64,000 nt of DNA from Acidimicrobiia bacterium (GTDB lineage Bacteria > Actinomycetota > Acidimicrobiia > Spongiisociales > ZC4RG35), in assembly GCA_035462175.1 (NCBI GenBank), contig DATHUP010000025.1, positions 12,447 to 76,446 of the forward strand, given 5' to 3'. Each line of letters begins with the position of its first letter. Within the stretch, counting starts at the first letter, position 1. Below the pieces are notes generated by a model. It ran no database searches and was not told the DNA's origin. It saw only the letters and a list, made by a program, of their open reading frames with translations. A program made the position numbers and the translations under genes. This document shows, one piece after another, positions 26,246 to 45,597 of the stretch.

Positions 26246-26698
26246 TCACTCTCCCTGCAGATCGGCGATCAGTGCCTTCATCTCGTCGATCTCTCGACGC
26301 TGGGATTCGATGATCTCATCGGCGAGCTCTCTGACTCTCGGGTCCGAGATCTCGGCCCTTTCGCTGGTCAGGATGGCGATCGAGTGGTGAGGGATCATGG
26401 CCCTCATGTATGAAACGTCCTGGACCGTCTCCTGGCTTCTCGCCAGGAACAACCCCCCGGCGACGACCACCGCGGCCCCGATGACGATGCCCACATTGGT
26501 CTTGTTGTTCGGGTACATCTTCCACATGAACCCCAACATCACGATCGCCATGACGGCCCCCATGTACAGCGCCATGTAGGACCTGGTCTCGCTCCATGTC
26601 ACGTGATCGAGCGCATAGACCGTGGAGTACATCAGACCGAACATGATCACGGTTGCCGTTCCGATCATGGCCGCGAAACGGCCGTAGGACATCTTCAT
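26246..26698 (-). CDS. DUF305-family protein with an N-terminal membrane domain
   Basis: MKMSYGRFAAMIGTATVIMFGL.. gives three TM segments. This is followed by MIPHHSIAILTSERAEISDPRVRELADEIIESQRREIDEMK, with the DUF305 HH motif. Confidence 0.7.
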   Translation of the reverse strand: MKMSYGRFAAMIGTATVIMFGLMYSTVYALDHVTWSETRSYMALYMGAVMAIVMLGFMWKMYPNNKTNVGIVIGAAVVVAGGLFLARSQETVQDVSYMRAMIPHHSIAILTSERAEISDPRVRELADEIIESQRREIDEMKALIADLQGE

Positions 26699-26789
26699 GG
26701 TTTCCCTTTCGTCAGCTCTCCCTGGCCCCATACCCTGATGTCCGCGCGGGCACACATCCGAGACCGGCCACGTACCGGCCTCGACCTCG

Positions 26790-27920
26790 CTAGAAGCGGG
26801 TGATGGCGACGAAGACGTGACCGTCGACCGGTGTCTCCGTGGTGGCTACCGGTGCGCCGGTGAGCATCGCGTGAACGGCAAGGCGGTCGAGGAGATCGAC
26901 GTCGAAGACCTCTTGTTCGTCGTGAAAGGTCACGTCGAGGTTGGAGGGGTCGAACCGGCCCCAGATCGGAGAGGCCTCCCGATGGATCAACAGGCGAGAC
27001 ACCCGGCCGGACACGGCCGCGATGAGACCTTCGGTGAGTTCGGTGATGGCGTTCCCGGTTCCGAGTTGCTCGCGAGCTAGCCCCAAATGCGTTCCGTGCT
27101 CCACGGCTTCGTGGTCCTCAACCACCTCGGCCGCCTTCTCTTGGACCTCCCTGACGTCGTCGACGTCGCCGATTCCGCTGTTCGGGGGAGAGATCATCTC
27201 GTGGTCATGGACGTTCTCGAAGTGGGCCACGAGATTGTCGTCGCCTAGCACGACCAGAGGCCGCAGGGGATCGGCTTCGGGCAGCCCGGCGCTGACTGCG
27301 CGCAGGAACCGATCCAGATCCTCGCCCTCGGAGGCCGACGGATCGTGGCCGTGGCGGGATCGTTTCGAACCGGCGCGGTCGGCATGTTGCTGACGTTGCT
27401 TCTCACGATCGACGAACCAGTTGACATCGTCTACGGACTTGGGCAGATCGGCGTCCACCGGGTAGGCGTCATGGCTGGATGCCGAATACAGCCGCACGCC
27501 GTGTCGGGTGAGGACCAAGACCGGGAGCCGGGTTGGCTCGATCGAGGGGATGGTGGGACGGAGATGGAAAGATGCCGCCAGGACTGCGCGTTTCTCGACC
27601 GGACCGGTCAGCGCCACCGGCGTCGGCTCGCCCTCGTCGTCGATGAGGACGGCGAGCCCAGGTCTCTGGTGCTCCCAGAATTCCTGGTCGTCGAGAAGAG
27701 CGTGGGCCACCTCGAGACGCTCTTCTCTCACCCGGGGCTTCCAGCCGACATCCTCCAGCCACCTGTCAACCTGGGCGATTCCGTTCTTCAGCAAGATCCG
27801 GCTCTGATCGATCTCGGCCCCCCTGACAGGGGTGGGCAGGTATATCGAGATCAATGCCTCGCCGCTCGCCGCGGCGAGGCGATCGAAGAGCTCGCGGTCG
27901 GGTTGGGTTGGTCTAGTCAC
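26790..27920 (-). CDS. bacterial archaeo-eukaryotic release-factor-like protein (baeRF3/baeRF7-like, eRF1/Pelota-related)
   Basis: 376 aa. ISIYLPTPVRGAEIDQSRILLKNGI..LLDDQEFWEHQRPGLAVLI..VLVLTRHGVRLY matches my recollection of baeRF-family N-terminal and central regions. Confidence 0.55.
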   Translation of the reverse strand: MTRPTQPDRELFDRLAAASGEALISIYLPTPVRGAEIDQSRILLKNGIAQVDRWLEDVGWKPRVREERLEVAHALLDDQEFWEHQRPGLAVLIDDEGEPTPVALTGPVEKRAVLAASFHLRPTIPSIEPTRLPVLVLTRHGVRLYSASSHDAYPVDADLPKSVDDVNWFVDREKQRQQHADRAGSKRSRHGHDPSASEGEDLDRFLRAVSAGLPEADPLRPLVVLGDDNLVAHFENVHDHEMISPPNSGIGDVDDVREVQEKAAEVVEDHEAVEHGTHLGLAREQLGTGNAITELTEGLIAAVSGRVSRLLIHREASPIWGRFDPSNLDVTFHDEQEVFDVDLLDRLAVHAMLTGAPVATTETPVDGHVFVAITRF

Positions 27921-30935: not shown

Positions 30936-32432
30936 TCACGCGTTTCGTGCTGCGGCGGTCCGGTGGAAGACGGCAGCTGCGGCGACGGTGATGCCTACCA
31001 ACCAGCCCAATGCCAAGAGCAGACCAGTGGTTTCGTCGAAGCCCGGTGTGAAGGCGCCGTCGATGAGGACTCGGACCGTGCCGTGGGCCGGCATCCATGC
31101 CGCCCACGGCGGGGGAGCGGCGTCGAACATGACGTTCTGGGCGAGGCCGACGTCGAGGAAGGGCAACAGGAACATCAGGTAGAGCCCCCCGAGCCGCCCG
31201 ACGAGAGGGCCGATGACGACGCCGATCATGGCGTAGGTGACCGCCACGGCGAACGTGGCCAGGACGAAGGTGAGCCACACCTGTGGCTGGAAGCTCCCTA
31301 CATAGACCGCCACTGAGACGACGGCGGTGACGATGGCGGCCGCCAGGGTGATCACTCCGAGTCGGGCGGCGAGGACTTCACCCGGTCGAAAACCGGCGAG
31401 GACCAGGCGGCGGTCCCCTTCCGCAGATCCGAGCACGACGAACAGGCCCGCCAGCCCGGCGAGGAAGGCCACCGTGATCGGGACCATGATGGCGCCGTGG
31501 ACGTCGATCATGGACAGGATGGAGATCGTGCGGACACCGTTCTCGACGAGCTCCACCGGAGCGGGATCATCGGGTGTGACCGCGAGCGATAGCGAGATGA
31601 AGAACAAGGGGAGGCCGATCAGCAGTACCCAGAGTGCGGTATTGCGCCGGTATTCGCGCCAGGCAAAGCGGAGTCCGGTTCGAACCCGGGCCCACGCACC
31701 GACGACGCGACGGGGACGGCCGGAGCCGGCGGGACGGGTGGTGGAGAAGAGAGCGACCACCGCCACTGCCAGCGCTCCGAAGGTCCAGGCGAGGGAAGCC
31801 CCGAGATCGCCGAGCGGGCCGGCGTGAGTGGTGGTCGCGTCCAGCATGACCTGGGTCGGAAAGTGGGCCGGGAAGAAACGGATGATGAGTGACTCGGTGC
31901 GTCCCATGGCGGGGCCGAGGAATACATCGAACATCCAGATGAAGATGATGATCAGCGACCCGTTGACCTCGGAGCGAACCAGGGCTCCGACGGCGACTCC
32001 GATCGCCAGGTAGATGAGGGCGAACATGGCTGTGGCCCCGACGGCACGACCCACGTCGACCAGGTCGGTACGGACCGCGAGGGCGGTCAACGCTCCGACT
32101 GAGGCGACGGCTGCCAAGGCCAGGGAGGAACTCACCCGCGCCGCCACCACCTTGGCGGTGGCGGCGCCTGCCGCAGCCAGGCGCCGGTCGGGTTCCCTCG
32201 ACCCGGTGACGTGGAAGAACCCGGCCACTCCGGCGAGGAATGCCGCAGCCCAGCCGGCGGTTGCGGCCTCCAACTGACCGAAACTGGCTTCCCCCCCGAG
32301 GATGCGGGCGAAGTCTGCAATGGCGCCCGCCGACAGAGCCACGAATACGACCGGGACCACCGCCAACAGGACCAGATTCAACGGTCTCCGGGCGTACTCA
32401 TTGAGATAGCGGCGTGTGAGCAGGGTGGTCAT
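30936..32432 (-). CDS. ABC-2-type transporter permease
   Basis: 498 aa, very hydrophobic, about 12 TM segments. Its start overlaps the ATPase stop by 4 nt. Confidence 0.7.
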   Translation of the reverse strand: MTTLLTRRYLNEYARRPLNLVLLAVVPVVFVALSAGAIADFARILGGEASFGQLEAATAGWAAAFLAGVAGFFHVTGSREPDRRLAAAGAATAKVVAARVSSSLALAAVASVGALTALAVRTDLVDVGRAVGATAMFALIYLAIGVAVGALVRSEVNGSLIIIFIWMFDVFLGPAMGRTESLIIRFFPAHFPTQVMLDATTTHAGPLGDLGASLAWTFGALAVAVVALFSTTRPAGSGRPRRVVGAWARVRTGLRFAWREYRRNTALWVLLIGLPLFFISLSLAVTPDDPAPVELVENGVRTISILSMIDVHGAIMVPITVAFLAGLAGLFVVLGSAEGDRRLVLAGFRPGEVLAARLGVITLAAAIVTAVVSVAVYVGSFQPQVWLTFVLATFAVAVTYAMIGVVIGPLVGRLGGLYLMFLLPFLDVGLAQNVMFDAAPPPWAAWMPAHGTVRVLIDGAFTPGFDETTGLLLALGWLVGITVAAAAVFHRTAAARNA

Positions 32433-33172
32433 CTTGGCACCGCCTTGCCCTCGACCAGGTCATAGATGCGGTCGAATCGTTCTGCGTCGGTGATGAAGTG
32501 GCTGATGATCAGAAGGCTCCGCCCGGCGTCACGCCGCTCTCTGGTGAGCTGCCAGAACCGCTGGTAGGTATCCCAGTCGAACCCGGCGTAAGGCTCGTCG
32601 AGCAACAGCAGGTCGGGGTCGGGCAAAAGAGCCAGTCCGAGATTCAGTTTGGCCTTGGTCCCTCCCGACAATTCCTCGACCCGCGAGTCACGCCATTCGG
32701 CGAATCCGAGAGTTCGGTAGATGTGATCTCGAGCGCTGTCGACGTCGATCTCGTTCATGCCGTACGCCCTGCCGAAGAGCTGGAAGTGCTCGTCACAGGT
32801 CAGACGCTCGTAAAGGATCGGCTCTTGAGGGCAGTACCCGACCGAGCCGGACTTGGATACGGTGCCGCCATCGCGTTCGATCCCGCCGACCAGGATCTTC
32901 ATCAGGGTCGACTTTCCCGAGCCGTTCTCACCGACCAGTCCCACGATCTCCCCGGATCGCAGTCTCAGATCGGCACCGCGGAGCACGTCGAGACGTCGTC
33001 GTCTTGGCCAGACCCCCCTCGTATAGGTCTTGATGATTCCGGTGGCGTCGAGCACGTCGGTCGCGGCGTCGCCACCCAGATGTCTGCCGGTGGACTCGAC
33101 GTCGAGATCCTCTGAGAGTGGGAGGCTGCCCACCGTCGGTGCGCTCGATTCTGTCGTTGGTGGGTGCATCAT
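32429..33172 (-). CDS. ABC transporter ATP-binding protein
   Basis: GENGSGKST (Walker A), LSGGTKAKL (signature), LLLLDEPYAGFD (Walker B). Confidence 0.85.
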   Translation of the reverse strand: MMHPPTTESSAPTVGSLPLSEDLDVESTGRHLGGDAATDVLDATGIIKTYTRGVWPRRRRLDVLRGADLRLRSGEIVGLVGENGSGKSTLMKILVGGIERDGGTVSKSGSVGYCPQEPILYERLTCDEHFQLFGRAYGMNEIDVDSARDHIYRTLGFAEWRDSRVEELSGGTKAKLNLGLALLPDPDLLLLDEPYAGFDWDTYQRFWQLTRERRDAGRSLLIISHFITDAERFDRIYDLVEGKAVPR

Positions 33173-33205: not shown

Positions 33206-33237
33206 AACCTACGCCTTCCAGCCGACTGGAAGGTCAA
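33206..33237 (-). promoter_or_regulatory. MerR-type promoter-operator, copy A (drives the ABC exporter operon)
   Basis: Minus strand reads TTGACC-TTCCAGTCGGCTGGAAGGCG-TAGGTT, with a 20-bp spacer. The palindrome has one central mismatch. The ATG at 33172 lies about 27 nt downstream of the predicted TSS and has a GGAAAGAGG SD. Confidence 0.65.
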
Positions 33238-33427: not shown

Positions 33428-33841
33428 TCACGATTCAGAAGCGTGCTCGCTCAGTGCGTCCACCACACGCTGCAATCGCACCAGGGCTTCGCTGGCCACA
33501 TGCTCCAAAGCTGGGTTGTTGGTCAGGCTGACCATCGTCGAAGGGTCGAGCACCGCAACCACGGTGCTCGTGCCGTCCTCATACACCACGACGTTGCAGG
33601 GCAGCAACAGGCCCACGTCTGCCTCTTTCTCCAAGGCTTCGGCAGCGAGGTGGGGGTTGCACGCTCCCAGGATGCGGTAGGGGCCCCGGGTCAGACCAAG
33701 CTTCGCTCGTAGGGTCTCGGCGACATCGATCTCGGTCAGGATTCCGAAACCCTCGTTGGTCAGAAGCTCTCTGACTCTGGCCTCCGCGGCCACCACGTCG
33801 AGGGTTGTCCTCGTCTTCAATCCGTATGCTGGCTGTGCCAA
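33428..33841 (-). CDS. DUF302-family protein
   Basis: 137 aa. LLTNEGFGILTEIDVAETLRAKLG..YRILGACNPHLA..LLPCNVVVYE matches DUF302. Confidence 0.75.
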   Translation of the reverse strand: MAQPAYGLKTRTTLDVVAAEARVRELLTNEGFGILTEIDVAETLRAKLGLTRGPYRILGACNPHLAAEALEKEADVGLLLPCNVVVYEDGTSTVVAVLDPSTMVSLTNNPALEHVASEALVRLQRVVDALSEHASES

Positions 33842-34089
33842 TGCGATTCCTCCTCAGCGGCTGCCGTGCGGCCGCTCAGACGCTCGGTCTCATGTTCGGC
33901 TCGTCGGTCGAACCACAGCATCATCATCACCATGCCAAGACATATCGCCAAGGCGAGACCGATGATGACACGGGGGATACTGCCGTCGAGCCGGAACAGA
34001 GCGATGGCACCGGCGGTCATCACCACCACTCCGACCCAAATCCAGAACAGGCCGGTCGGTCCAGACGCGAGGCGTTCGGTGGATCTCAC
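33817..34089 (-). CDS. small two-TM membrane protein with a His-containing tail (90 aa); not resolved by the ORF track
   Basis: The GTG at 34089 overlaps the cupredoxin stop (GTGA). Sequence: VRSTERLASGPTGLFWIWVGVVVMTAGAIALF..VIIGLALAICLGMVMMMLWF..EEESHWHSQHTD. Confidence 0.5.
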   Translation of the reverse strand: MRSTERLASGPTGLFWIWVGVVVMTAGAIALFRLDGSIPRVIIGLALAICLGMVMMMLWFDRRAEHETERLSGRTAAAEEESHWHSQHTD

Positions 34090-34457
34090 GACACCACCAC
34101 TTTGCCCCGAAGCATTCCCATCTGGCAGGCGAACTCGAAGACGCCGGCTTTGTCCGGCGTGAACTCGATGGGCACATTGGAGCCCTGGGGCAGCTCGGCA
34201 GAGACACCGAAGGTGTCGAAGACGACCCGCTCCGAGCAGGGGTCGGCCTCCTGGCGGTTGAAGATCAGCCGCACCGGCCGTCCCGCGCTGACCCTGATCG
34301 TGTCCGGGCTGTATCCACCTTTGACAACGACGAAAGCCTCCTGGGTCCCATCGCTGGTGACACCGGCGACGGTCCCTGTTGGCTTGGAGAGCCAGAAGTA
34401 CCAGACGATCAGTCCGATCAGGGCCAGGCCCCCCAGATTGACCAATACGACGTCCAT
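34086..34457 (-). CDS. membrane-anchored cupredoxin-like domain protein
   Basis: 123 aa. An N-terminal TM segment, then a cupredoxin_1-like core (VVVKGGYSPDTIRVSAGRPVRLIF..GVFEFACQMGMLRGKVVV). Its start overlaps the copA stop (TGATG). Confidence 0.7.
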   Translation of the reverse strand: MDVVLVNLGGLALIGLIVWYFWLSKPTGTVAGVTSDGTQEAFVVVKGGYSPDTIRVSAGRPVRLIFNRQEADPCSERVVFDTFGVSAELPQGSNVPIEFTPDKAGVFEFACQMGMLRGKVVVS

Positions 34458-36928
34458 CAGGAAACCTCCTCACGGTGGGTGGGTTTGAAGCGGCGGAGCC
34501 GATTGGCATTGGTGACCACGGTGACCGAGGAGAACGCCATGGCCGCCCCGGCGATCAGCGGGGAAAGCAGGATTCCCAGGGCCGGGTAGAGCACACCGGC
34601 CGCAACCGGAATGCCCAGGGTGTTGTAAGCGAACGCGCCCACCAGGTTCTGGTGGATGTTGCGCATCGTCGCCTGGGAAAGCTCGATGGCGGTGGCCACT
34701 CCGGTGAGCGACCCCTTGACCAGAGTGATGTCGCCCGACTCCATGGCGACGTCCGTGCCGGTGCCCATGGCCAGACCGACGTCGGCCTGGGCGAGAGCGG
34801 GGGCGTCGTTGATCCCGTCACCGACCATGGCCACCACCTTTCCTTCGGCTTGGAGGAGCTTGATCTGGGTCGCCTTCTCGTCGGGGAGCACTTCGGCCAG
34901 CACTCGATCGATTCCCACGCTTCGGGCGATGGCGGCTGCTGTGCGGTGGTTGTCCCCGGTGAGCATGACTACCTCCAAGCCGAGACGGTGAAGCCGGGCG
35001 ATGGCTTCGATCGAGTCGTCCTTGAGGGTGTCGGCGACCGCCACCGCCCCGGCGGGCTCGCCGTCGACGGCGATGACCATCGCAGTCTTCCCTTGTTCGG
35101 CAAGCGACTCGAGCTGGGACTCGGCAGGCCCGGCCGCGATTCCCCGATCGGCCATCAGCTTCAGAGTCCCCAGAACGACGTTGCGGCCGTCGACTCGGGC
35201 TTCGATCCCGTGGCCCGGCACCGCCGAGAACTGGTCGGGATCACTCAAGGCAAGCTCACGGTCGAGTGCAGCTCGTACGATCGCCTCTCCGAGTGGATGC
35301 TCCGAACCTCTTTCGGCGGAGGCGGCCAGCCGCAGGACTTCGTCTTCGGTGTAGCCCTCAAAGGCAGTGATATCGGTCAGGGACGGTTCACCGCGGGTGA
35401 TGGTGCCGGTCTTGTCCACCACAACCGTGTCGATACGGTGGGCAGTCTCCAGGGCGTCACCGGAGCGGATCAAGATCCCGTTCTCGGCGCCCTTCCCGAT
35501 CCCCACCATCAGCGAGGTCGGTGTGGCCAGACCGAGGGCGCAGGGGCAGGCGATCACCAGCACAGTGACCATCGTGATCACCGCGTACACGAGGGCCGGA
35601 GAAGGGCCGAAGGTGTACCAGGTCATGAAGGTGGCCACGGCCACGATCATCACCGCGGGGACGAAATACCCCGACACCTTGTCGACGGTGCGCTGGATCG
35701 GAGCTTTGGAGCCCTGGGCGTCGCGAACCATGCGAATGATCTGAGCCAGCATCGTCTCCTTGCCTACCCGGGTGGCCCGGAATCGGAAGGTGCCGGTGCG
35801 ATTGATGGTTGCTCCGATCACGGTGGCGCCTTCACCCTTCTCCACCGGGATCGGTTCCCCGGTGACCATCGATTCGTCCACGGCAGACGACCCTGAGACC
35901 ACCTGGCCGTCCACCGGGACCTTTTCCCCAGGGCGGACCACCACCACGTCCCCAACCACAACCTCATTCACCGGGATGTCGACCTCGCTCCCGTCACGTA
36001 CCACGCGGGCGGTTTTGGCCTGGAGACCGATCAACTTTTTCATCGCCTCCGAAGTGCGGGCCCGGGCGCGCAGTTCGAGCGCCGTACCCAACACCACCAG
36101 GGCGGTCACCACTGCGGTCACGTCATAAAAGACATCACGCAGCATCTCGTCGGGGAAGAACCCAGGGAATACGACCGCCGCCGTGGAGTACAACCAGGCG
36201 GCGGAGATCCCGGTGGCGATCAGGGTGTGCATATTCGCCGAGCGGTGTTTGAGAGCGCCCCACGCCCCCGTGAAGAACTGCGATCCGGACCAGGCCAGCA
36301 CCGGCAGGGTGAGAACACCCATCGCCAGCCAGATCCACCACAACGCAGTCGAACCCTTCGCCGGTATTCCGGGGAAGACCTCCGGATAGGAGAAGTAGAT
36401 CACCGGCAATGACACGATGGCAGCGAACCAGAACTTACGCATCAGCAGCCGGTAGCGGCGCTCCGACTCGACCCGCTCGGTGTCCGAAGTGTCGACGTCC
36501 CCTTCGATCGCCTCCGCCTGATAGCCGGCGCTGGCCACGGCCTCGGTCAGCACCGAGGCCGGCACCTCGTGGGCGGTGTCCACGGTGGCGGTGTTGGCAG
36601 CGAAGTTGACCCGGGCGTCGATCACCCCCGGTACCGCGCTCAAGGCGGTCTCCACCGTCGACACACACGAGCCGCAGGTCATTCCGCTCACGGACAGGTG
36701 GATGGCCCCGATCACTTCGGTTCGAGCGGAGGGAGGCTGGGCTGTGTCGTCAGTAGACGTGGCTGCCGTGTAACGCTCCGGGTCGGCCAAGAAGCTGCCT
36801 CGGCAGTGCTCCGAGCAGAACCCGAGCTCTGGATGCCCATCCGCGCGCAGCGCGGTGGAGCTCACCCTCATCCCACACACCGGATCACTGAGCTCGACGT
36901 CCTTCGATTTCGTGTTCATCACGTTCAT
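34457..36928 (-). CDS. copA: Cu(I)/Ag(I)-translocating P1B-1-type ATPase with N-terminal TRASH/YHS and HMA domains
   Basis: Starts at ATG 36928 ([26 protein letters not shown] = TRASH). GMTCGSCV is the HMA motif. Also present: [21 protein letters not shown], the YN-x4-P signature (AYNTLGIP) and the MxxSS signature (MAFSS). The track ORF extends to 37441, but that part is antisense to merR. Confidence 0.9.
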
Positions 36929-36934
36929 GTCGCC

Positions 36935-36966
36935 ACCGTACGCCTTCCAGTCGACTGGAATGTCAA
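36935..36966 (-). promoter_or_regulatory. MerR-type promoter-operator, copy B (PcopA, divergent from the regulator gene)
   Basis: Minus strand reads TTGACA-TTCCAGTCGACTGGAAGGCG-TACGGT. The copA ATG begins 7 nt after the -10, so the transcript is probably leaderless. On the + strand, TAAGAT (36971-36976) lies 6 nt before the merR ATG. Confidence 0.75.
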
Positions 36967-36982
36967 GGGGTAAGATGAACTC

Positions 36983-37444
36983 ATGAGAATTGGAGAACTG
37001 GCTAGACGCACCGGCGTGCCCACCAAGACGATCCGCTATTACGAAGAGGTCGGGGTGCTGCCCGCCCCGGAACGGTCGGCCAACGACTACCGCGACTATC
37101 CAGAAGAGGCCGTCGATCGTCTCGGGTTCGTGCGCGACGCCCAGGCCACGGGTCTCACCCTGGCCGAGATCGCCTCCATACTTGACCTTCGTGGCCAGGG
37201 TGAGGCCACTTGCCATCACGTCATCGAACTGCTCGAGGGTCACCTGACCGCCCTCGATCGACACATCCAGACCTTGCGTGAGACACGTAAGAAGTTGACC
37301 GCCCTCACCGAGCAGGCTCGAAGTCTCGACCCCTCCGAGTGTCGCGATCCCAACCGGTGTCAGACCATCACCGGAGAGATGAAGTTGAAGACCCGACATG
37401 GGGGACAGCACCTCCACACCGCTCCGGTAGGCCATAACCACTGA
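36983..37444 (+). CDS. MerR-family heavy-metal-responsive transcriptional regulator
   Basis: [26 protein letters not shown] is the HTH. Candidate metal ligands are Cys77-His78-His79 and Cys120-x5-Cys126, plus a His-rich tail ([15 protein letters not shown]). Confidence 0.9.
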
Positions 37445-37486
37445 ACAGGTCCATGGTGAGCTCGTAGTCGATTAGCGACGGGCATG

Positions 37487-37518
37487 TTGACATTCCAGTC
37501 GACTGGAAGCTGTACGGT
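37487..37518 (+). promoter_or_regulatory. MerR-type promoter-operator, copy C (drives the dehydrogenase gene)
   Basis: Plus strand reads TTGACA-TTCCAGTCGACTGGAAGCTG-TACGGT. It lies 43 nt after the merR stop and 35 nt before ATG 37553. Confidence 0.7.
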
Positions 37519-37552
37519 GACCAGGAAGGCCTCACCGAGAAGAGACGAAGCG

Positions 37553-38935
37553 ATGGGAAGTCTCAGAGCCATACCCGACATGACGACGACCATCCAGAAC
37601 GATTCGGTGCCGGTGAGCCCAGCAGTGACCCGGCCGGAAGGGGAACGCTGCCGGAACTCGCTGCACTCTCACGGCAACCCGCCGGTCACGTCCGAGGGTG
37701 GGGGTCTGCTCGATTGGGAAGCGGAGAGATTTCAGCGGGCCGCGCACCGGCTCGGGCTCGAACCAGCCTTGACCTGTGCCTTGCATTGCGCCAACCGGTC
37801 GGTGGAGGTGGAGATCCCCCTGAGACGGGACGATGGCAATCTCGAGGTCTATTCGGGCTATCGGGTGCAGCATTCCCGCGCTTTGGGCCCGGCCAAAGGC
37901 GGACTCCGTTATCACCCTTCGGTCACCGCCGGTGAGGTGACCGCCCTGGCCCGGTTGATGACCTGGAAGACCGCGCTGGCCGGGCTGCCTTTCGGCGGCG
38001 GCAAGGGCGGCATCCCGTGCGACCCGGGCAGTTTCTCAAAGGGGGAGCTGCGACGGCTCACATATGCCTACACCGAGGGAATCCTGCCTGTGATTGGCCC
38101 CGACACCGATGTGGTCGCCCCCGATGTCGGTACGGGTCCCGAGACGATGGGCTGGATCCTGGCTGCGGCCCACCAGGCCGGACAGGGCGACCCTCGGCTG
38201 GTCACCGGCAAGCCGGAGAATCTCGGCGGCAATCGCTTCCGAGCCAAGGCGACCGGTGTAGGCGTCGCCCATCTCGCCGAACTTGCCTACCACCACATCG
38301 GCGGCAGAGTGGATCGAGCGCGGGTGGCAGTGGAAGGCTTCGGGTCGGTGGGCCGCTGGGCCGCCCTGGAGCTCGCGGAACGGGGCGCCAGCATCGTCGC
38401 CGTGGCCGACGTGAGCGGCAGCATCTACTCCCCATACGGCCTCGACGTTTCATCCCTGATCGACTGGACAGCCGGGGGCGGCCCCCTGCTGGGGTACCCA
38501 AAGGCGAACATCTCCGAGGCGAGCGTCCTCGAGACTCCCTGTGACATCGTCATCGCCGCCGCCATGGAAGGAACCCTCACCACTGCGGTCGCTTCCCGGG
38601 TCACCGCCCGTCTGGTGGTGGAAGGGGCCAACGGACCCACCACCCCCCAAGCCGAAACCAGGCTTCATGAGTTGGGTGTCTCCGTGGTCCCTGACCTGGT
38701 CGCCAACGCCGGCGGGGTGATCTCGTCGTACTTCGAATGGGCCAATAGCCAACCGGGTCAGGCTTGGACCGAAGCCGAGGAAAGGCGCCGGGTCCTGGAT
38801 CGTCTCGGCCACATGTGGAGTCTTGTCGCCAACGAGGAGCCGGGCCAGTGGCGTGTGTCGGCGTTGACCCAGGCGATCGTCAGGGTTGTTGACGGTATGA
38901 GGGCCGCGGGGATCATCCAGCGGGCTTCGGGTTGA
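37553..38935 (+). CDS. Glu/Leu/Phe/Val dehydrogenase family protein (glutamate dehydrogenase-like) with an N-terminal extension
   Basis: YSGYRVQHSRALGPAKGGLRYHP..MTWKTALAGLPFGGGKGGI is the catalytic Lys/Gly-rich motif. VAVEGFGSVGRWAA is the Rossmann motif. The start is uncertain (ATG 37553 or 37580). Confidence 0.85.
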   Translation: MGSLRAIPDMTTTIQNDSVPVSPAVTRPEGERCRNSLHSHGNPPVTSEGGGLLDWEAERFQRAAHRLGLEPALTCALHCANRSVEVEIPLRRDDGNLEVYSGYRVQHSRALGPAKGGLRYHPSVTAGEVTALARLMTWKTALAGLPFGGGKGGIPCDPGSFSKGELRRLTYAYTEGILPVIGPDTDVVAPDVGTGPETMGWILAAAHQAGQGDPRLVTGKPENLGGNRFRAKATGVGVAHLAELAYHHIGGRVDRARVAVEGFGSVGRWAALELAERGASIVAVADVSGSIYSPYGLDVSSLIDWTAGGGPLLGYPKANISEASVLETPCDIVIAAAMEGTLTTAVASRVTARLVVEGANGPTTPQAETRLHELGVSVVPDLVANAGGVISSYFEWANSQPGQAWTEAEERRRVLDRLGHMWSLVANEEPGQWRVSALTQAIVRVVDGMRAAGIIQRASG

Positions 38936-39086
38936 GCGCCCACCCGCGGCGGCGGGCACGGACGGGAGGATTGGAAGGGTGAGATCCTGATTCGACTTCC
39001 GATTCTAGGGTTGTTCGTAGCATCAGCTGCGGGGCTGACGTTTAGGGATCGGCGTCGACCAGGGCTCTGAGTTGGGGCAGCGGTGT

Positions 39087-39395
39087 TCAGCCACGGGCGA
39101 GCATCCGGTCGATCTGGGCCTGGTACTGCTCCTGGGCCCGAATCATGTCCGGGTCGACCCACATCGGATCGGCCTCGATCATGGTGTTCATCGAGGAATG
39201 GGCGGTGACCCGCATCCGTTCCAGCATCCTGATGTCTCCGTCGAGCATCTCGACCTCCCCCGACTCGGTCACCATGGGAGCACGGGAGGACGGCTGGGCC
39301 GAACCAGGTGTGAAGCTCCCGCTCAATGCCGCCGCGGTCACCAACACTGCGATGAAAAGGACCCAGCTGGCTGTCGCGATCTTGAGGAACCTCAT
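39087..39395 (-). CDS. small secreted Met-rich protein (102 aa), candidate Cu(I)-binding
   Basis: Signal-peptide-like N-terminus (MRFLKIATASWVLFIAVLVTAAALSG). The mature part has 9 Met in about 75 aa (PMVTESGEVEMLDGDIRMLERMRVTAHSSMNTMIEADPMWVDPDM). A GAAAGG SD is present. Confidence 0.65.
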   Translation of the reverse strand: MRFLKIATASWVLFIAVLVTAAALSGSFTPGSAQPSSRAPMVTESGEVEMLDGDIRMLERMRVTAHSSMNTMIEADPMWVDPDMIRAQEQYQAQIDRMLARG

Positions 39396-39422
39396 GACGA
39401 ACCTTTCTATGGCTCTGTTGCG

Positions 39423-39454
39423 ATCGTACGCCTTCCAGTCGACTGGAATGTCAA
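39423..39454 (-). promoter_or_regulatory. MerR-type promoter-operator, copy D (drives the Met-rich protein gene)
   Basis: Minus strand reads TTGACA-TTCCAGTCGACTGGAAGGCG-TACGAT. It is identical to copy B across the -35 and spacer. Confidence 0.7.
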
Positions 39455-39516
39455 GGGACGGCCGCTACTCACGAGCTCGTCCCGACGGGCACTCTCGATC
39501 GAGAGGAATCCGGTGG

Positions 39517-39840
39517 TCAGTGATCGTGGTCGTGGGTGGTCGTCGTTACCGAAGAGAGCTCCGGTGGGGCCGTGCTCTCACCTGTGAGCAGAGGGCCGAT
39601 GTAGAGCGAGGAGAGCGTATAAGTGAGGGCGAAGACCAACATTGCGATCGCAGGCGCCGCCCAGGTGCCGAACCGTCGGTAGAGACGGATCAGCATTGGG
39701 GTGGCCAGCCCCATCCCGATCACGAAGAACAGGACCTGTCCTCCGGCCCCGGCGAGGATCGCGGCTCCGGCCAGCGGCCCAACATGGTGTAGGACGTGGG
39801 GAGCGACACCACTCACCGCTCCCCAGACCGCGGTGAGCAC
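39517..39840 (-). CDS. small membrane protein with a C-terminal HDHDH tail (107 aa)
   Basis: GTG 39840. Three TM segments (GAAILAGAGGQVLFFVIGMGLATPML; AAPAIAMLVFALTYTLSSLYIG). The tail is TTTHDHDH. The upstream part of track ORF 39517..40245 is shadow. Confidence 0.45.
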   Translation of the reverse strand: MLTAVWGAVSGVAPHVLHHVGPLAGAAILAGAGGQVLFFVIGMGLATPMLIRLYRRFGTWAAPAIAMLVFALTYTLSSLYIGPLLTGESTAPPELSSVTTTTHDHDH

Positions 39841-39887: not shown

Positions 39888-40756
39888 TCAGGTCCTCGTC
39901 CCTTCTGTGGCTGCCAATGTTGCCATGGCGACCCCTTCGGTCGGGCTGCGACGTCCCAGTCTCCGGTACATGGCGATGCCAAACAACCCGGCAACCAGGC
40001 CGCTCAACTGGTTCCAGCTGAGCGGGCCGATGGCGGCGTCGCCGACCCGCAGGAAGTCGAGCAGGAAGCGTTGCAGCCCGTACCACGCCATCCACAGGGC
40101 GAAGAGTTGACCGTCTTGCATCGGGACGCGTCGTGCCCATACGACGAGAGCAATGAGCAAGACAGCGGCACCAATGAGGTCGTAAGCCGCCACCGGTTGA
40201 TAGACCCCGCACAGCCCGTCCGCTCTCGCCTGTGCCACGGTGCACTGGAGAGAGTTGTGTGCCGGGGCCACGCTGTACCCCGCCACCAACCCATAACCCC
40301 AGGGCAGCGATGTTGGTCTGCCCAGATGCTCAACTATTGCTAGACAGCCGAGTCTGCCGATCACGGTGCCCAGGGCGAGACCGTAGGTGGAGACATCGAG
40401 AGTGGGCAGGACAGGCATACCTAATGCCCTGATTCGCCACAGCCCGACCAGGATTCCGCCGGTGAATCCGCCGAGGATCGAGAAGTTCCCCGAAAGTGGG
40501 CTCAGCGCTGACCAGCCGGCGCCGTCCAACAAGGCGGCCGGGGCGGTGAGGTAGCGGCTCCGAGGAGGGCGCCCACCAAGGCCCAAGACACGACCGACTG
40601 GTACTTGTCCACGTCGCCGCCGGCTCGAGCGAGATGCCGTGAAGCCAGCCAGGCTCCGGCGAAGATACCGAGGGCGATGAAAAGCCCGTGGACCGACAGC
40701 TGGATCGGACCGAGATGGATAGGACCCAGCGGCGGGTAGGAAATCACAGCAATCAT
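39888..40756 (-). pseudogene. lgt: prolipoprotein diacylglyceryl transferase, split by an apparent 1-nt frameshift near 40555-40565
   Basis: The N-terminal 65 aa (MIAVISYPPLGPIHLGPIQLSVHGLFIALGIF..VSWALVGALLG) are in one frame. The remainder (SRYLTAPAAL..GNFSILGGFTGG..VIGRLGCLAIVEHLGRPTSLPWG) is in another frame, as track ORF 39888..40766. Confidence 0.7.
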
Positions 40757-40781
40757 GGACGTTCACGTACCGCGGGGTGGC

Positions 40782-44443: not shown

Positions 44444-44530
44444 CCCGCCAGGTTAAGCCATGACATTCGCCTCTCCCGCCAGGACTCTGAAATGCGTCTC
44501 CGCCAACTGATAGTGGACACCGAGCCCCTG

Positions 44531-44890
44531 ATGGCGGTGCTGGGCGGAGGTTTGGTCGGATCTGCCGCCCGGGCCGGGATCGGCCAGGTCTTACCGACCG
44601 CGCCAGGTGCGTTTCCCGTCGCCACCTTGATGGTGAATCTCATCGGGTCGCTTTTCCTCGGCGTCTATCTCGCCCGCAGGGAACGCGCCGCGACGATCCG
44701 TTGGTCGCTTCAGTTCTGGGCGATCGGAGTGCTGGGATCGTTCACGACCTTCTCCGCCTTCAGCCTCGACGTCGTTCATCTCCTCGATGCCAATCGGCCA
44801 ATGCCGGCCCTCGGCTACGTGACTGCCTCCGTCATCGGAGGGCTGCTCCTCGCTCTGACCGGCCAAAGACTCGGCTCGAGCTTCCGATGA
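44531..44890 (+). CDS. crcB: fluoride channel CrcB/FluC, subunit 1
   Basis: MAVLGGGLVGSAARAGIG..ATLMVNLIGSLFLG..GVLGSFTTFSAFS. The track start at 44492 is probably too far upstream. Confidence 0.85.
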   Translation: MAVLGGGLVGSAARAGIGQVLPTAPGAFPVATLMVNLIGSLFLGVYLARRERAATIRWSLQFWAIGVLGSFTTFSAFSLDVVHLLDANRPMPALGYVTASVIGGLLLALTGQRLGSSFR

Positions 44891-45237
44891 CGCTTCTGCT
44901 CGCGACACTCGCCGGTGCTGTCGGGGCGGTATGCCGATATCTCCTCTCCGGATGGGTGCAGCAGCAAACGCGGTCGGATTTCCCGCTGGGAACACTCGCC
45001 GTCAACCTGGTCGGAGCGTTCCTCCTCGGTCTCCTCGCCGGGACCGAGGCGCTTCAGTCGGCGGCGGCTCTGGCCGGTGCCGGATTCCTCGGAGGTTTCA
45101 CCACCTTCTCGACATGGATGATCGAAACCATTCGACTCGGCATCCCACCCCTCAGAGGGAGAGCCGTGGCCAACCTCGCCCTCACCTTCCTCGCCGGCGT
45201 CGCGCTCGCCGCAGTCGGCTATAGCCTGACCAACTGA
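44887..45237 (+). CDS. crcB: fluoride channel CrcB/FluC, subunit 2
   Basis: Its ATG overlaps the upstream TGA (ATGA). LAGAVGAVCRYLL..LAVNLVGAFLLG..FLGGFTTFSTW. Confidence 0.85.
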   Translation: MTLLLATLAGAVGAVCRYLLSGWVQQQTRSDFPLGTLAVNLVGAFLLGLLAGTEALQSAAALAGAGFLGGFTTFSTWMIETIRLGIPPLRGRAVANLALTFLAGVALAAVGYSLTN

Positions 45238-45246
45238 CGGGAGAAA

Positions 45247-45597
45247 ATGATGGACCAACAGTCAGACGCCCGGTTGCTCCGGATCTTCATCGGCGAGTCC
45301 GATACCTACGACGGACGCCCGCTCTATCAAGCCATCGTCGAGACTCTTCGGCGGGAGGGTCTGGCCGGAACCACGGTTCTCAGGGGAATCGAAGGTTTTG
45401 GCAAATCCAGCCGCCTCCACACCGCCCACATCCTTCGCCTCTCCGAGGACCTTCCCATCGTCATCGAATGCGTCGACACGGGCGACAAGGTCGAGGCCGT
45501 GCTCCCCGCCCTCGACGAGATGATCGGTGATGGCCTGGTCACCCTGGAACGAGTCGAAGTCCGCGTCTACCGGGCCGGTACAGACGACACCAGCTGA
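45247..45597 (+). CDS. DUF190-family (PII-like) protein commonly linked to crcB
   Basis: LLRIFIGESDTYDGRPLYQAIVETLRREGLAGTTVLRGIEGFG. Confidence 0.8.
   Translation: MMDQQSDARLLRIFIGESDTYDGRPLYQAIVETLRREGLAGTTVLRGIEGFGKSSRLHTAHILRLSEDLPIVIECVDTGDKVEAVLPALDEMIGDGLVTLERVEVRVYRAGTDDTS

Follow-up and report, generated by a model that had tools for sequence, protein, structure and literature searches.

Why would a gene for an amino acid dehydrogenase be wired to a metal sensor? The question is raised by a 64,000-nucleotide stretch of an Acidimicrobiia genome (assembly GCA_035462175.1, contig DATHUP010000025.1, positions 12,447-76,446; hereafter the window, numbered from its own first nucleotide), in which a gene of the Glu/Leu/Phe/Val dehydrogenase family sits within a metal island that spans 30.9-43.1 kb according to the Pfam and NCBIfam annotation (Table 1). 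The G+C content of the window is 65%, and its nearest relatives are Acidimicrobiia metagenome-assembled genomes (MAGs). Copper kills bacteria largely by damaging particular metabolic enzymes, and the copper regulons known to us hold almost only pumps, chaperones and oxidases. A first-pass annotation, made from the sequence of the window, had placed the dehydrogenase just past merR and behind a MerR-type metal-sensor promoter, had remarked that amino acid dehydrogenases are not standard members of CueR/MerR regulons, and had proposed that recurrence beside merR and copA be sought in related taxa. The analysis described here bears out the placement and the recurrence, and literature searches gave no precedent for such a regulon member. 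Membership of this glutamate dehydrogenase (GDH) in the predicted regulon is well supported by the anatomy of the promoter and by its conservation; to the fuller proposal, that it belongs as a dedicated component to a CueR/HmrR-like regulon for a metal, most likely copper, and serves as a copper-induced replacement or bypass isozyme, we assign roughly even chances.

The regulatory signal is a palindrome, TTCCAGTCGACTGGAA, which has exact copies at positions 36945, 37493 and 39433 and a further copy, with a single mismatch, at position 33216. With up to three mismatches allowed, the window contains four matches where 0.45 are expected, and none of 100 shuffled sequences reached four. All four copies (A to D) are embedded in the same 32-bp architecture, TTGAC[AC]-20 bp-TAnnnT, and each points at a gene, namely those for an ATP-binding cassette (ABC) exporter (A), copA (B), GDH (C) and a Met-rich secreted protein (D). 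In copy C, the 16-bp palindrome is perfect and lies between TTGACA and TACGGT; the promoter starts 42 nt past the merR stop codon (37444) and ends 34 nt ahead of the GDH start codon (37553). Activator-dependent promoters of the MerR type are characterised by an over-long spacer between the -35 and -10 hexamers. A generic sigma-70 scan of positions 36800-39600, which considers spacers of 16-18 bp only, picked up none of the operator promoters, the one ahead of GDH included, an expected outcome given that MerR-type promoters have an over-long spacer, for which such a scan is uninformative.

In the window and its relatives, the operator sites read AC[CA]TTCCAG-TCGA-CTGGAAGG[T], and the orthologous sites in the relatives read ACCTTCCAGTCGACTGGAAGGT. 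The published signals are ACCTTCCAG-(3)-CTGGAAGG for HmrR and ACCTTCCC-(5)-TGGAAGGT for CueR, both with a 19-bp spacer (PMC1526738). Judged by its sequence, the window operator is thus an HmrR/CueR signal that, relative to HmrR, has one extra central base (a central gap of 4 nt, compared to 3 in HmrR and 5 in CueR) and a 20-bp spacer. The resemblance to the CueR/HmrR regulons of Proteobacteria (copA and cueO; actP-hmrR) includes the MerR-family activator, the ACCTTCC...GGAAGGT dyad inside an over-long spacer (19-20 bp) upstream of the target, the divergent arrangement of sensor and copA, and a P1B-1-type Cu(I) ATPase as the main target. In Escherichia coli, the box TTGACCTTCCCCTTGCTGGAAGGTTTAACCT was confirmed to precede copA by 29 bp, and glsA (ybaS) to be divergent from copA.

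A scan with the pattern TTGACNTTCCAGTCGACTGGAAGG across one genome per species (185,579 species) yielded 47 exact sites in 46 stretches, the majority of them from Acidimicrobiia. A CopA homologue is encoded within 3.2 kb downstream at 27 of the 47 sites, and several others are cut by the locus end; the CopA-linked sites include records from Trueperaceae, Sphaerobacter, Demequinaceae and Haloechinothrix besides Acidimicrobiia, and some other sites, with no CopA detected, belong to Armatimonadota, Chloroflexia and Gemmatimonadota. Given that 27 of the exact sites precede CopA homologues, the element is best classified, by sequence context, as a copA operator. The exact-operator scan of the species genomes returned copA sites and no GDH site, because the operators proximal to GDH mostly carry one to three mismatches or a GCTG flank, which in the window and in one relative (L119) replaces the GG demanded by the pattern.

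The link between operator and GDH is constant across relatives. We identified 14 distinct loci (L001, L006, L007, L009, L010, L011, L013, L015-L019, L119 and L120) that encode a GDH with the Cys/His motif described below, at 59-80% amino acid identity; in all 14 the gene is tied to a copper island, and in 12 the operator-promoter is found upstream of GDH or of its operon. The neighbours vary among these 12 loci, and the link between operator and GDH is kept throughout. The window differs from the relatives in the orientation of its Met-rich gene: in the relatives this gene opens a MetRich-GDH operon on the strand of GDH, and here it is inverted; the inverted gene and GDH each retain their own copy of the operator. 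By contrast with the 14 loci, a control set of 73 GDH loci of the ordinary kind, drawn from many phyla (780 kb in total, 56 of them at least 8 kb long), contains no CopA, MerR, CsoR or cupredoxin homologue and no operator, and two Acidimicrobiia GDH loci without the motif (L002, L039) are likewise devoid of copper genes and operator. A sister clade that possesses only the CALHC part of the motif is mixed: one GDH gene (L115) is divergent from a CsoR/cupredoxin-ATPase operon, with no recognisable operator seen in the intergenic region, another (L116) has no copper genes around it, and a third (L117) forms a pair with a methyltransferase gene and has a YHS gene nearby. Two of the loci, L016 and L019 (DATHZQ010000060 and DATHZQ010000020), come from the same MAG, which holds two copies of the copA-cupredoxin-methyltransferase-GDH string on separate contigs, perhaps through duplication or as variants from different strains.

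The start of the GDH gene had to be revised. The first-pass annotation used an open reading frame (ORF) that begins at ATG 37484, 23 codons too early: this codon overlaps the -35 hexamer, so that, if the copy C promoter is used, the first 23 codons are promoter. In a 92%-identical homologue (P0001), the start codon corresponds to ATG 37553, and Arg takes the place of the Met that the window encodes at 37580. On these grounds, the gene is taken as 37553-38935 (460 aa).

The product is a typical GDH in its fold. It matches the dimerisation domain PF02812 (E 1.2e-49, 167.8 bits against a threshold of 25.3) and the NAD(P)-binding domain PF00208 (E 2.4e-54, 185 bits against 23.4), and its closest match is the Thermotoga maritima GDH (1b26; E 7.9e-98). 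The AlphaFold2 (AF2) monomer model has a predicted local distance difference test (pLDDT) score of 89.7, and Foldseek gives template modelling (TM) scores of 0.90-0.94 to solved hexameric GDHs. With the short-type hexameric enzymes (T. maritima 1b26, plant GDH1/2, Thermococcus, Pyrococcus) it shares some 40-47% identity, the two-domain fold, the catalytic Lys and Asp and the glutamate-binding Lys and Ser. Residues K115, K139, K151, D191 and S392 are invariant in 76 aligned sequences and align with those of the T. maritima GDH. Following the numbering of the C. symbiosum GDH, we take these residues to be K115 (GPAKGG) and K139 (WK), the catalytic Lys K151 (GGGKGG), the catalytic Asp D191 (APD), and S392 (GGVxSSY). 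The Lys/Ser pair binds the gamma-carboxylate of glutamate and is replaced in Leu, Phe and Val dehydrogenases. The enzyme is accordingly predicted, from sequence and model, to be a catalytically competent, glutamate-specific GDH of the hexameric type.

The protein nevertheless stands apart from the known GDHs. It remains below the curated NCBIfam equivalog cut-offs (GdhB_Halo 364 against 620, GdhA_Arch 337 against 750), which points to a distinct subfamily. A profile search against 1.84 billion representatives clustered at 50% identity retrieved 2,982 clusters at E<=1e-30, among which the clade is a single representative with 653 bits and the next GDH scores 436 bits. Among the structural matches of the window GDH is PDB 7mfm, the glutamate synthase-GDH counter-enzyme complex of Bacillus subtilis; by analogy, physical binding of GDH to glutamate synthase (GOGAT) is a possible alternative route by which the enzyme might act on the glutamate node.

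A distinctive feature of the subfamily is its N-terminus. In the alignment, residue 52 of the window GDH falls on residue 6 of 1b26, which leaves approximately 46 extra residues, and the Cys- and His-containing extension that the first-pass annotation had noted as absent from canonical GDHs is genuine. This arm (residues 1-51) carries the sequence ERCRNSLHSH at positions 31-40, and a second motif, CALHC, is found in the core at positions 75-79, at the end of the second helix and just ahead of the first strand, where the short-type enzymes have a basic loop. Residues E31, R32, C33, S36, H38 and H40 are retained in 32 of 32 sequences, as are C75, L77, H78, C79 and A80, and the arm residues around the first motif are variable. 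The arm lacks a hydrophobic signal-like stretch, and a Pfam search at E<=10 with the N-terminal 83 residues gave no family match. Two AF2 models, built from the 76-sequence and the clade-only 32-sequence alignments, both hint at a hairpin that would pair residues 31-32 with 39-40 and bring C33 near H38 and H40. Among the best 120 database matches, the motif ERCxxSxHxH is present in 35, including every match of at least 61% identity with a sufficient N-terminus, and CxLHC reaches a wider sister group at 51-60% identity. In the species-representative genomes, motif-bearing GDHs were detected only in six Acidimicrobiia MAG species, and the ERCxxSxHxH subfamily thus appears confined to Acidimicrobiia. 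Together, the arm and CxLHC probably bind a thiophilic metal.

The putative sensor has the helix-turn-helix and dimerisation helix of the MerR family and a C-terminal Cys pair (C120 and C126); all of 6 orthologues retain C77, H79, C120 and C126, and the C-terminal tail is His-rich (HLHxAPxGHxH). Copper is most likely the inducer, a view taken from the content of the regulon and not from the sequence of the sensor: the ATPase passes the cut-off of the TIGR01511 Cu subfamily with a score of 614 against 397. We class the system as a regulon of the CueR/HmrR type, probably for copper, into which a specialised GDH has been recruited. Literature searches gave no example of a CueR/MerR regulon with a GDH among its members, nor of a type II glyceraldehyde-3-phosphate dehydrogenase (GAPDH) or class I fructose-bisphosphate aldolase (FBA) in CueR/HmrR regulons.

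We infer the following mechanism. A dimer of the MerR-family sensor would sit on the dyad ACaTTCCAG-TCGA-CTGGAAGc inside the over-long 20-bp spacer, and its metal-bound form, with copper as the presumed inducer, would realign the -35 and -10 hexamers and activate transcription of GDH together with the copA-cupredoxin operon, the ABC exporter and the secreted Met-rich protein. The induced GDH could then sustain the glutamate/2-oxoglutarate/ammonium node, working in the direction that this implies, while enzymes sensitive to copper are inactivated by Cu(I), with the Fe-S enzyme GOGAT as the foremost candidate. Metal bound to the arm and CxLHC might protect the enzyme or provide a second, post-translational layer of metal control. 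Replacement or bypass at the glutamate node is the most economical functional reading; it is plausible, and its support is circumstantial.

Such an arrangement would be akin to the replacement isozymes of other stress regulons, such as the SoxRS-induced FumC and AcnA (SoxR itself being a MerR-family protein) and the Zur-regulated zinc-free paralogues. In these systems, as proposed here, the stress sensor also induces a variant that does the job of a vulnerable housekeeping enzyme. Unlike in those cases, the stress would be a thiophilic metal, the candidate vulnerable counterpart is GOGAT or another GDH, and the isozyme adds a Cys/His arm rather than dropping a cofactor.

The bypass hypothesis gains circumstantial support from a precedent in E. 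coli and from the wiring of sister loci. Copper is reported to inactivate the Fe-S GOGAT of E. coli, and added glutamate to rescue growth (PMC10903455, PMC13618251). The gene for a copper-induced glutaminase, ybaS (glsA, paired with ybaT), adjoins copA and cueR, and this enzyme reportedly compensates for the copper-inactivated GOGAT (work of Djoko et al. from 2017, cited after PMC10903455). The parallel lies in the linkage of a gene for a glutamate-producing enzyme to copA. The enzymes are non-homologous, the glutaminase needing imported glutamine where GDH needs 2-oxoglutarate, NH4+ and NAD(P)H; moreover, ybaST is reportedly not directly regulated by CueR, whereas the window GDH has an operator copy of its own.

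Among the relatives, further metabolic enzymes are drawn into the same regulon, which in this respect, as with GDH itself, differs from the CueR/HmrR regulons. A type II (archaeal-type) GAPDH gene lies directly behind the operator in L001 and L007 (score 451 against a cut-off of 185), and L006 and L010 encode type II GAPDH together with class I FBA (645 against 327) within copA-like operons; in the second of these loci, GAPDH, aldolase and GDH form one string. Predicted co-regulation with other candidate replacement enzymes is thus seen in the relatives only: the 64-kb window has no GAPDH, aldolase, flavin adenine dinucleotide (FAD)-dependent oxidoreductase or GDH-linked YHS gene. GDH works without an Fe-S cluster and class I aldolase without a metal, and GapA and the archaeal-type GAPDH are distinct proteins. 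The sister islands hence suggest, by their gene content, copper-induced replacement of glycolytic enzymes. GapA itself is reported as a target of mis-metallation by copper (PMC10903455, PMC13618251). These observations allow a bolder version of the proposal, which we put forward tentatively: a copper-triggered swap module, in which a Cu(I)-binding arm would make the activity or stability of GDH copper-responsive, and GDH, archaeal-type GAPDH and the metal-independent class I aldolase would replace the steps of GOGAT, GapA and class II aldolase. The position of GAPDH behind a copA operator and of aldolase in copA-like operons of the sister genomes fits such a module.

Several observations weigh against the interpretation of GDH as a copper-induced replacement enzyme. 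The sensor remains under every metal-specific NCBIfam equivalog cut-off, with CadR-PbrR as the best match (100.7) and CueR (TIGR02044) at 85.8 against a cut-off of 147.4. Its residue 77 is a Cys, as is the aligned residue in MerR and CadR, and the arrangement of Cys77 and C120-x5-C126 differs from that of Ser77 and C112-x7-C120 in CueR; Cys77 is the signature of divalent-ion and Hg sensors, and Ser77 that of the monovalent-ion sensor CueR. Since the sensor fails the CueR cut-off and carries Cys77, the inducer could be another thiophilic metal. With merR on the same strand and no terminator predicted after it in a scan of positions 36800-39600, read-through from merR into GDH is possible. The coenzyme preference, and hence the catalytic direction, is not readable from the sequence (VADVSG motif). 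AF2 leaves the proposed metal-binding arm below a pLDDT of 50 in both runs, the affected residues being 1-47 in the model with an overall score of 89.7. A query with a canonical Acidimicrobiaceae GDH matched 22 loci, none of them in the six carrier MAGs, in a search that finds close relatives only and in MAGs that are incomplete; the 64-kb window itself has no second GDH and no ORF of the size of the GOGAT large subunit. Finally, the FAD oxidoreductase gene that follows GDH in five relatives fits a supply of reductant at least as well. Among the solved structures, those nearest to the sensor are the Bacillus megaterium MerR (4ua1), then CadR, then CueR, and the locus pairs a box of the CueR/HmrR type with a sensor of the three-Cys pattern (C77, C120, C126) seen in Hg/Cd/Pb sensors.

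The supply of reductant is the core of an alternative under which GDH would be catabolic during metal stress, converting glutamate to 2-oxoglutarate, NH4+ and NAD(P)H rather than assimilating ammonium, to feed flavoprotein and thiol-redox proteins or to yield 2-oxoglutarate as an antioxidant. This would account for the FAD/NAD(P)-binding oxidoreductase of approximately 375 aa (N-terminus HI0933/geranylgeranyl-reductase-like) encoded directly after GDH in L001, L010, L013, L017 and L018, commonly with the gene for a 52-aa YHS protein next in line, for the fused remnant in L119, and for the redoxin, CcdA-like and Trx-like genes of the window island. In a proteomic study of Sulfolobus metallicus, GDH likewise increased under Cu and Cd, and the study interprets its action as oxidative deamination (PMC3595675). 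The flavoprotein and YHS genes are, however, missing from the window and from several relatives, with GDH as the constant element, and the redox genes of the island lie behind a CsoR gene and not behind this operator; on balance, we consider a catabolic role unlikely. The YHS link has a further possible meaning, in that the hexamer would display six flexible Cys/His arms plus CxLHC and act as a moonlighting metal buffer or sensor, sequestering Cu(I) or passing it to YHS or CopA, with the dehydrogenase activity secondary or metal-switched. A small YHS protein is encoded after GDH in L001, L006, L007, L013, L015 and L119, its start overlapping the GDH stop in L006; C33, H38 and H40 in the arm and C75, H78 and C79 in the core are invariant next to variable, disordered flanks, and the hairpin hinted at by AF2 would place C33 close to the two His residues. 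Against this, the strict conservation of catalytic and substrate-binding residues argues that catalysis matters, one or two sites per subunit would offer a small capacity, and the arm matches no known metal-binding family, so that a primary buffering function appears improbable.

It could also be argued that GDH is a housekeeping gene that happens to lie beside merR, the operator copy serving merR or other neighbours or being an inert duplicated remnant. The immediate vicinity of merR upstream without a predicted terminator, and the flank of copy C (GCTG, compared to GGTG and GGCG at the copA sites), would be compatible with this explanation. Yet the operator accompanies GDH in 12 loci with differing neighbours, in most of which merR is not adjacent, it is always oriented toward GDH, the control loci have nothing comparable, and the subfamily is a single 50%-identity cluster, set off from its next match by more than two hundred bits, with lineage-specific invariant motifs. 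Mere hitch-hiking is therefore highly improbable, and the recruitment of GDH as a copper-induced replacement or bypass isozyme remains the reading we prefer. It would imply that a copper-pump operator has been wired to a metabolic enzyme across the whole lineage and that this enzyme has its own conserved Cys/His module; the wiring would point to the nodes that are limiting under copper stress in these bacteria, namely glutamate supply and lower glycolysis. If the arm does bind copper, GDH would be under direct metal control as well.

Table 1. Features of the metal island in the window and of the related loci (window coordinates unless a locus is named)
Feature	Location	Strand	Remarks
DUF305 protein	26246-26755	minus	island flank
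Bacterial eRF1-like protein (baeRF family 3)	26790-27920	minus	island flank
ABC-2 type exporter	30936-33172	minus	ATPase 32429-33172, permease 30936-32432; Pfam ABC_tran, ABC2_membrane_3
Promoter-operator copy A	33206-33237	minus	1 mismatch; drives ABC exporter
DUF302 protein	33428-33841	minus	PF03625; belongs to copA operon in relatives
Cupredoxin-like protein	34086-34457	minus	co-operonic with copA; PF13473, E 2.5e-20
copA, P1B-1-type Cu(I) ATPase	34457-36928	minus	N-terminal YHS and HMA domains (Pfam); CPC, YN, MxxSS motifs
copA promoter-operator copy B	36935-36966	minus	TTGACA-20 bp-TACGGT; divergent from merR
merR-family metal sensor, 153 aa	36983-37444	plus	Pfam MerR_1, MerR-DNA-bind, MerR
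GDH promoter-operator copy C	37487-37518	plus	TTGACA, 20-bp spacer with palindrome TTCCAGTCGACTGGAA at 37493-37508, TACGGT
GDH isozyme, 460 aa	37553-38935	plus	PF02812, PF00208
Small Met-rich protein, 102 aa	39087-39395	minus	N-terminal hydrophobic segment; convergent with GDH
Promoter-operator copy D	39423-39454	minus	drives Met-rich protein
Lgt-like gene	39888-40766		adjoins SHOCT-to-redoxin block
SHOCT, CsoR/RicR-like repressor, Trx-like, CcdA-like membrane protein, redoxin	43088-40782	minus	
CrcB and DUF190 pair	44492-45597	plus	island flank
Operator-promoter directly upstream of GDH	L006, L010, L015, L017		
Operator, unannotated ~700-bp gap, GDH	L018		
Operator, MetRich (full gene or remnant), GDH	L001, L007, L013, L119		
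Operator, short ORFs, GDH	L011, L120		
merR, operator, copA-cupredoxin-methyltransferase-ABC-ABC-GDH	L009		one strand; 2.29-Mb scaffold
copA-cupredoxin-methyltransferase-GDH	L016, L019		contigs start inside copA
Type II GAPDH	L001:12429-13331; L007:12760-13241		directly behind operator
Type II GAPDH and class I FBA	L006:3354-5581	minus	copA-like operon
Type II GAPDH and class I FBA	L010:3216-4397		copA-like operon
FAD oxidoreductase(-YHS)	L001:7366-8692; L013:8387-9637; L017:3947-5056; L018:3901-5013; L010:1844-2989		after GDH
Fused FAD-motif-YHS remnant	L119:2001-2321		start overlaps GDH stop
UbiE/PmtA-like methyltransferase	L009:6984-7730; L016:925-1656; L019:979-1710; L017:6641-7291; L117:6351-7004; L128		S-adenosylmethionine-dependent

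The copA start codon (ATG 36928) lies only 6 nt past the -10 hexamer of copy B, so that the copA mRNA is probably leaderless; the 994-aa ORF listed at 34457-37441, which extends across merR on the opposite strand, is spurious. The cupredoxin-like gene is syntenic in L007, L009 and L016, and the DUF302 gene is the first gene behind the operator in L001, L007 and L013. A site equivalent to that of the ABC exporter precedes the ABC ATPase gene in L007, and in L009 the exporter is located inside the copA...GDH operon. The Met-rich protein has no Pfam (E<=10) or NCBIfam family match.

The block from SHOCT to redoxin amounts to a second copper-sensor system beside the merR island; it is syntenic in L001, L007, L013 and L015, and in L009 only the part from CsoR to redoxin is kept. 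The UbiE/PmtA-like methyltransferase is another recurrent gene, with cupredoxin on one side and GDH or the ABC exporter on the other; in L117 it overlaps the start of GDH, and in an Armatimonadota contig it is found behind the operator.

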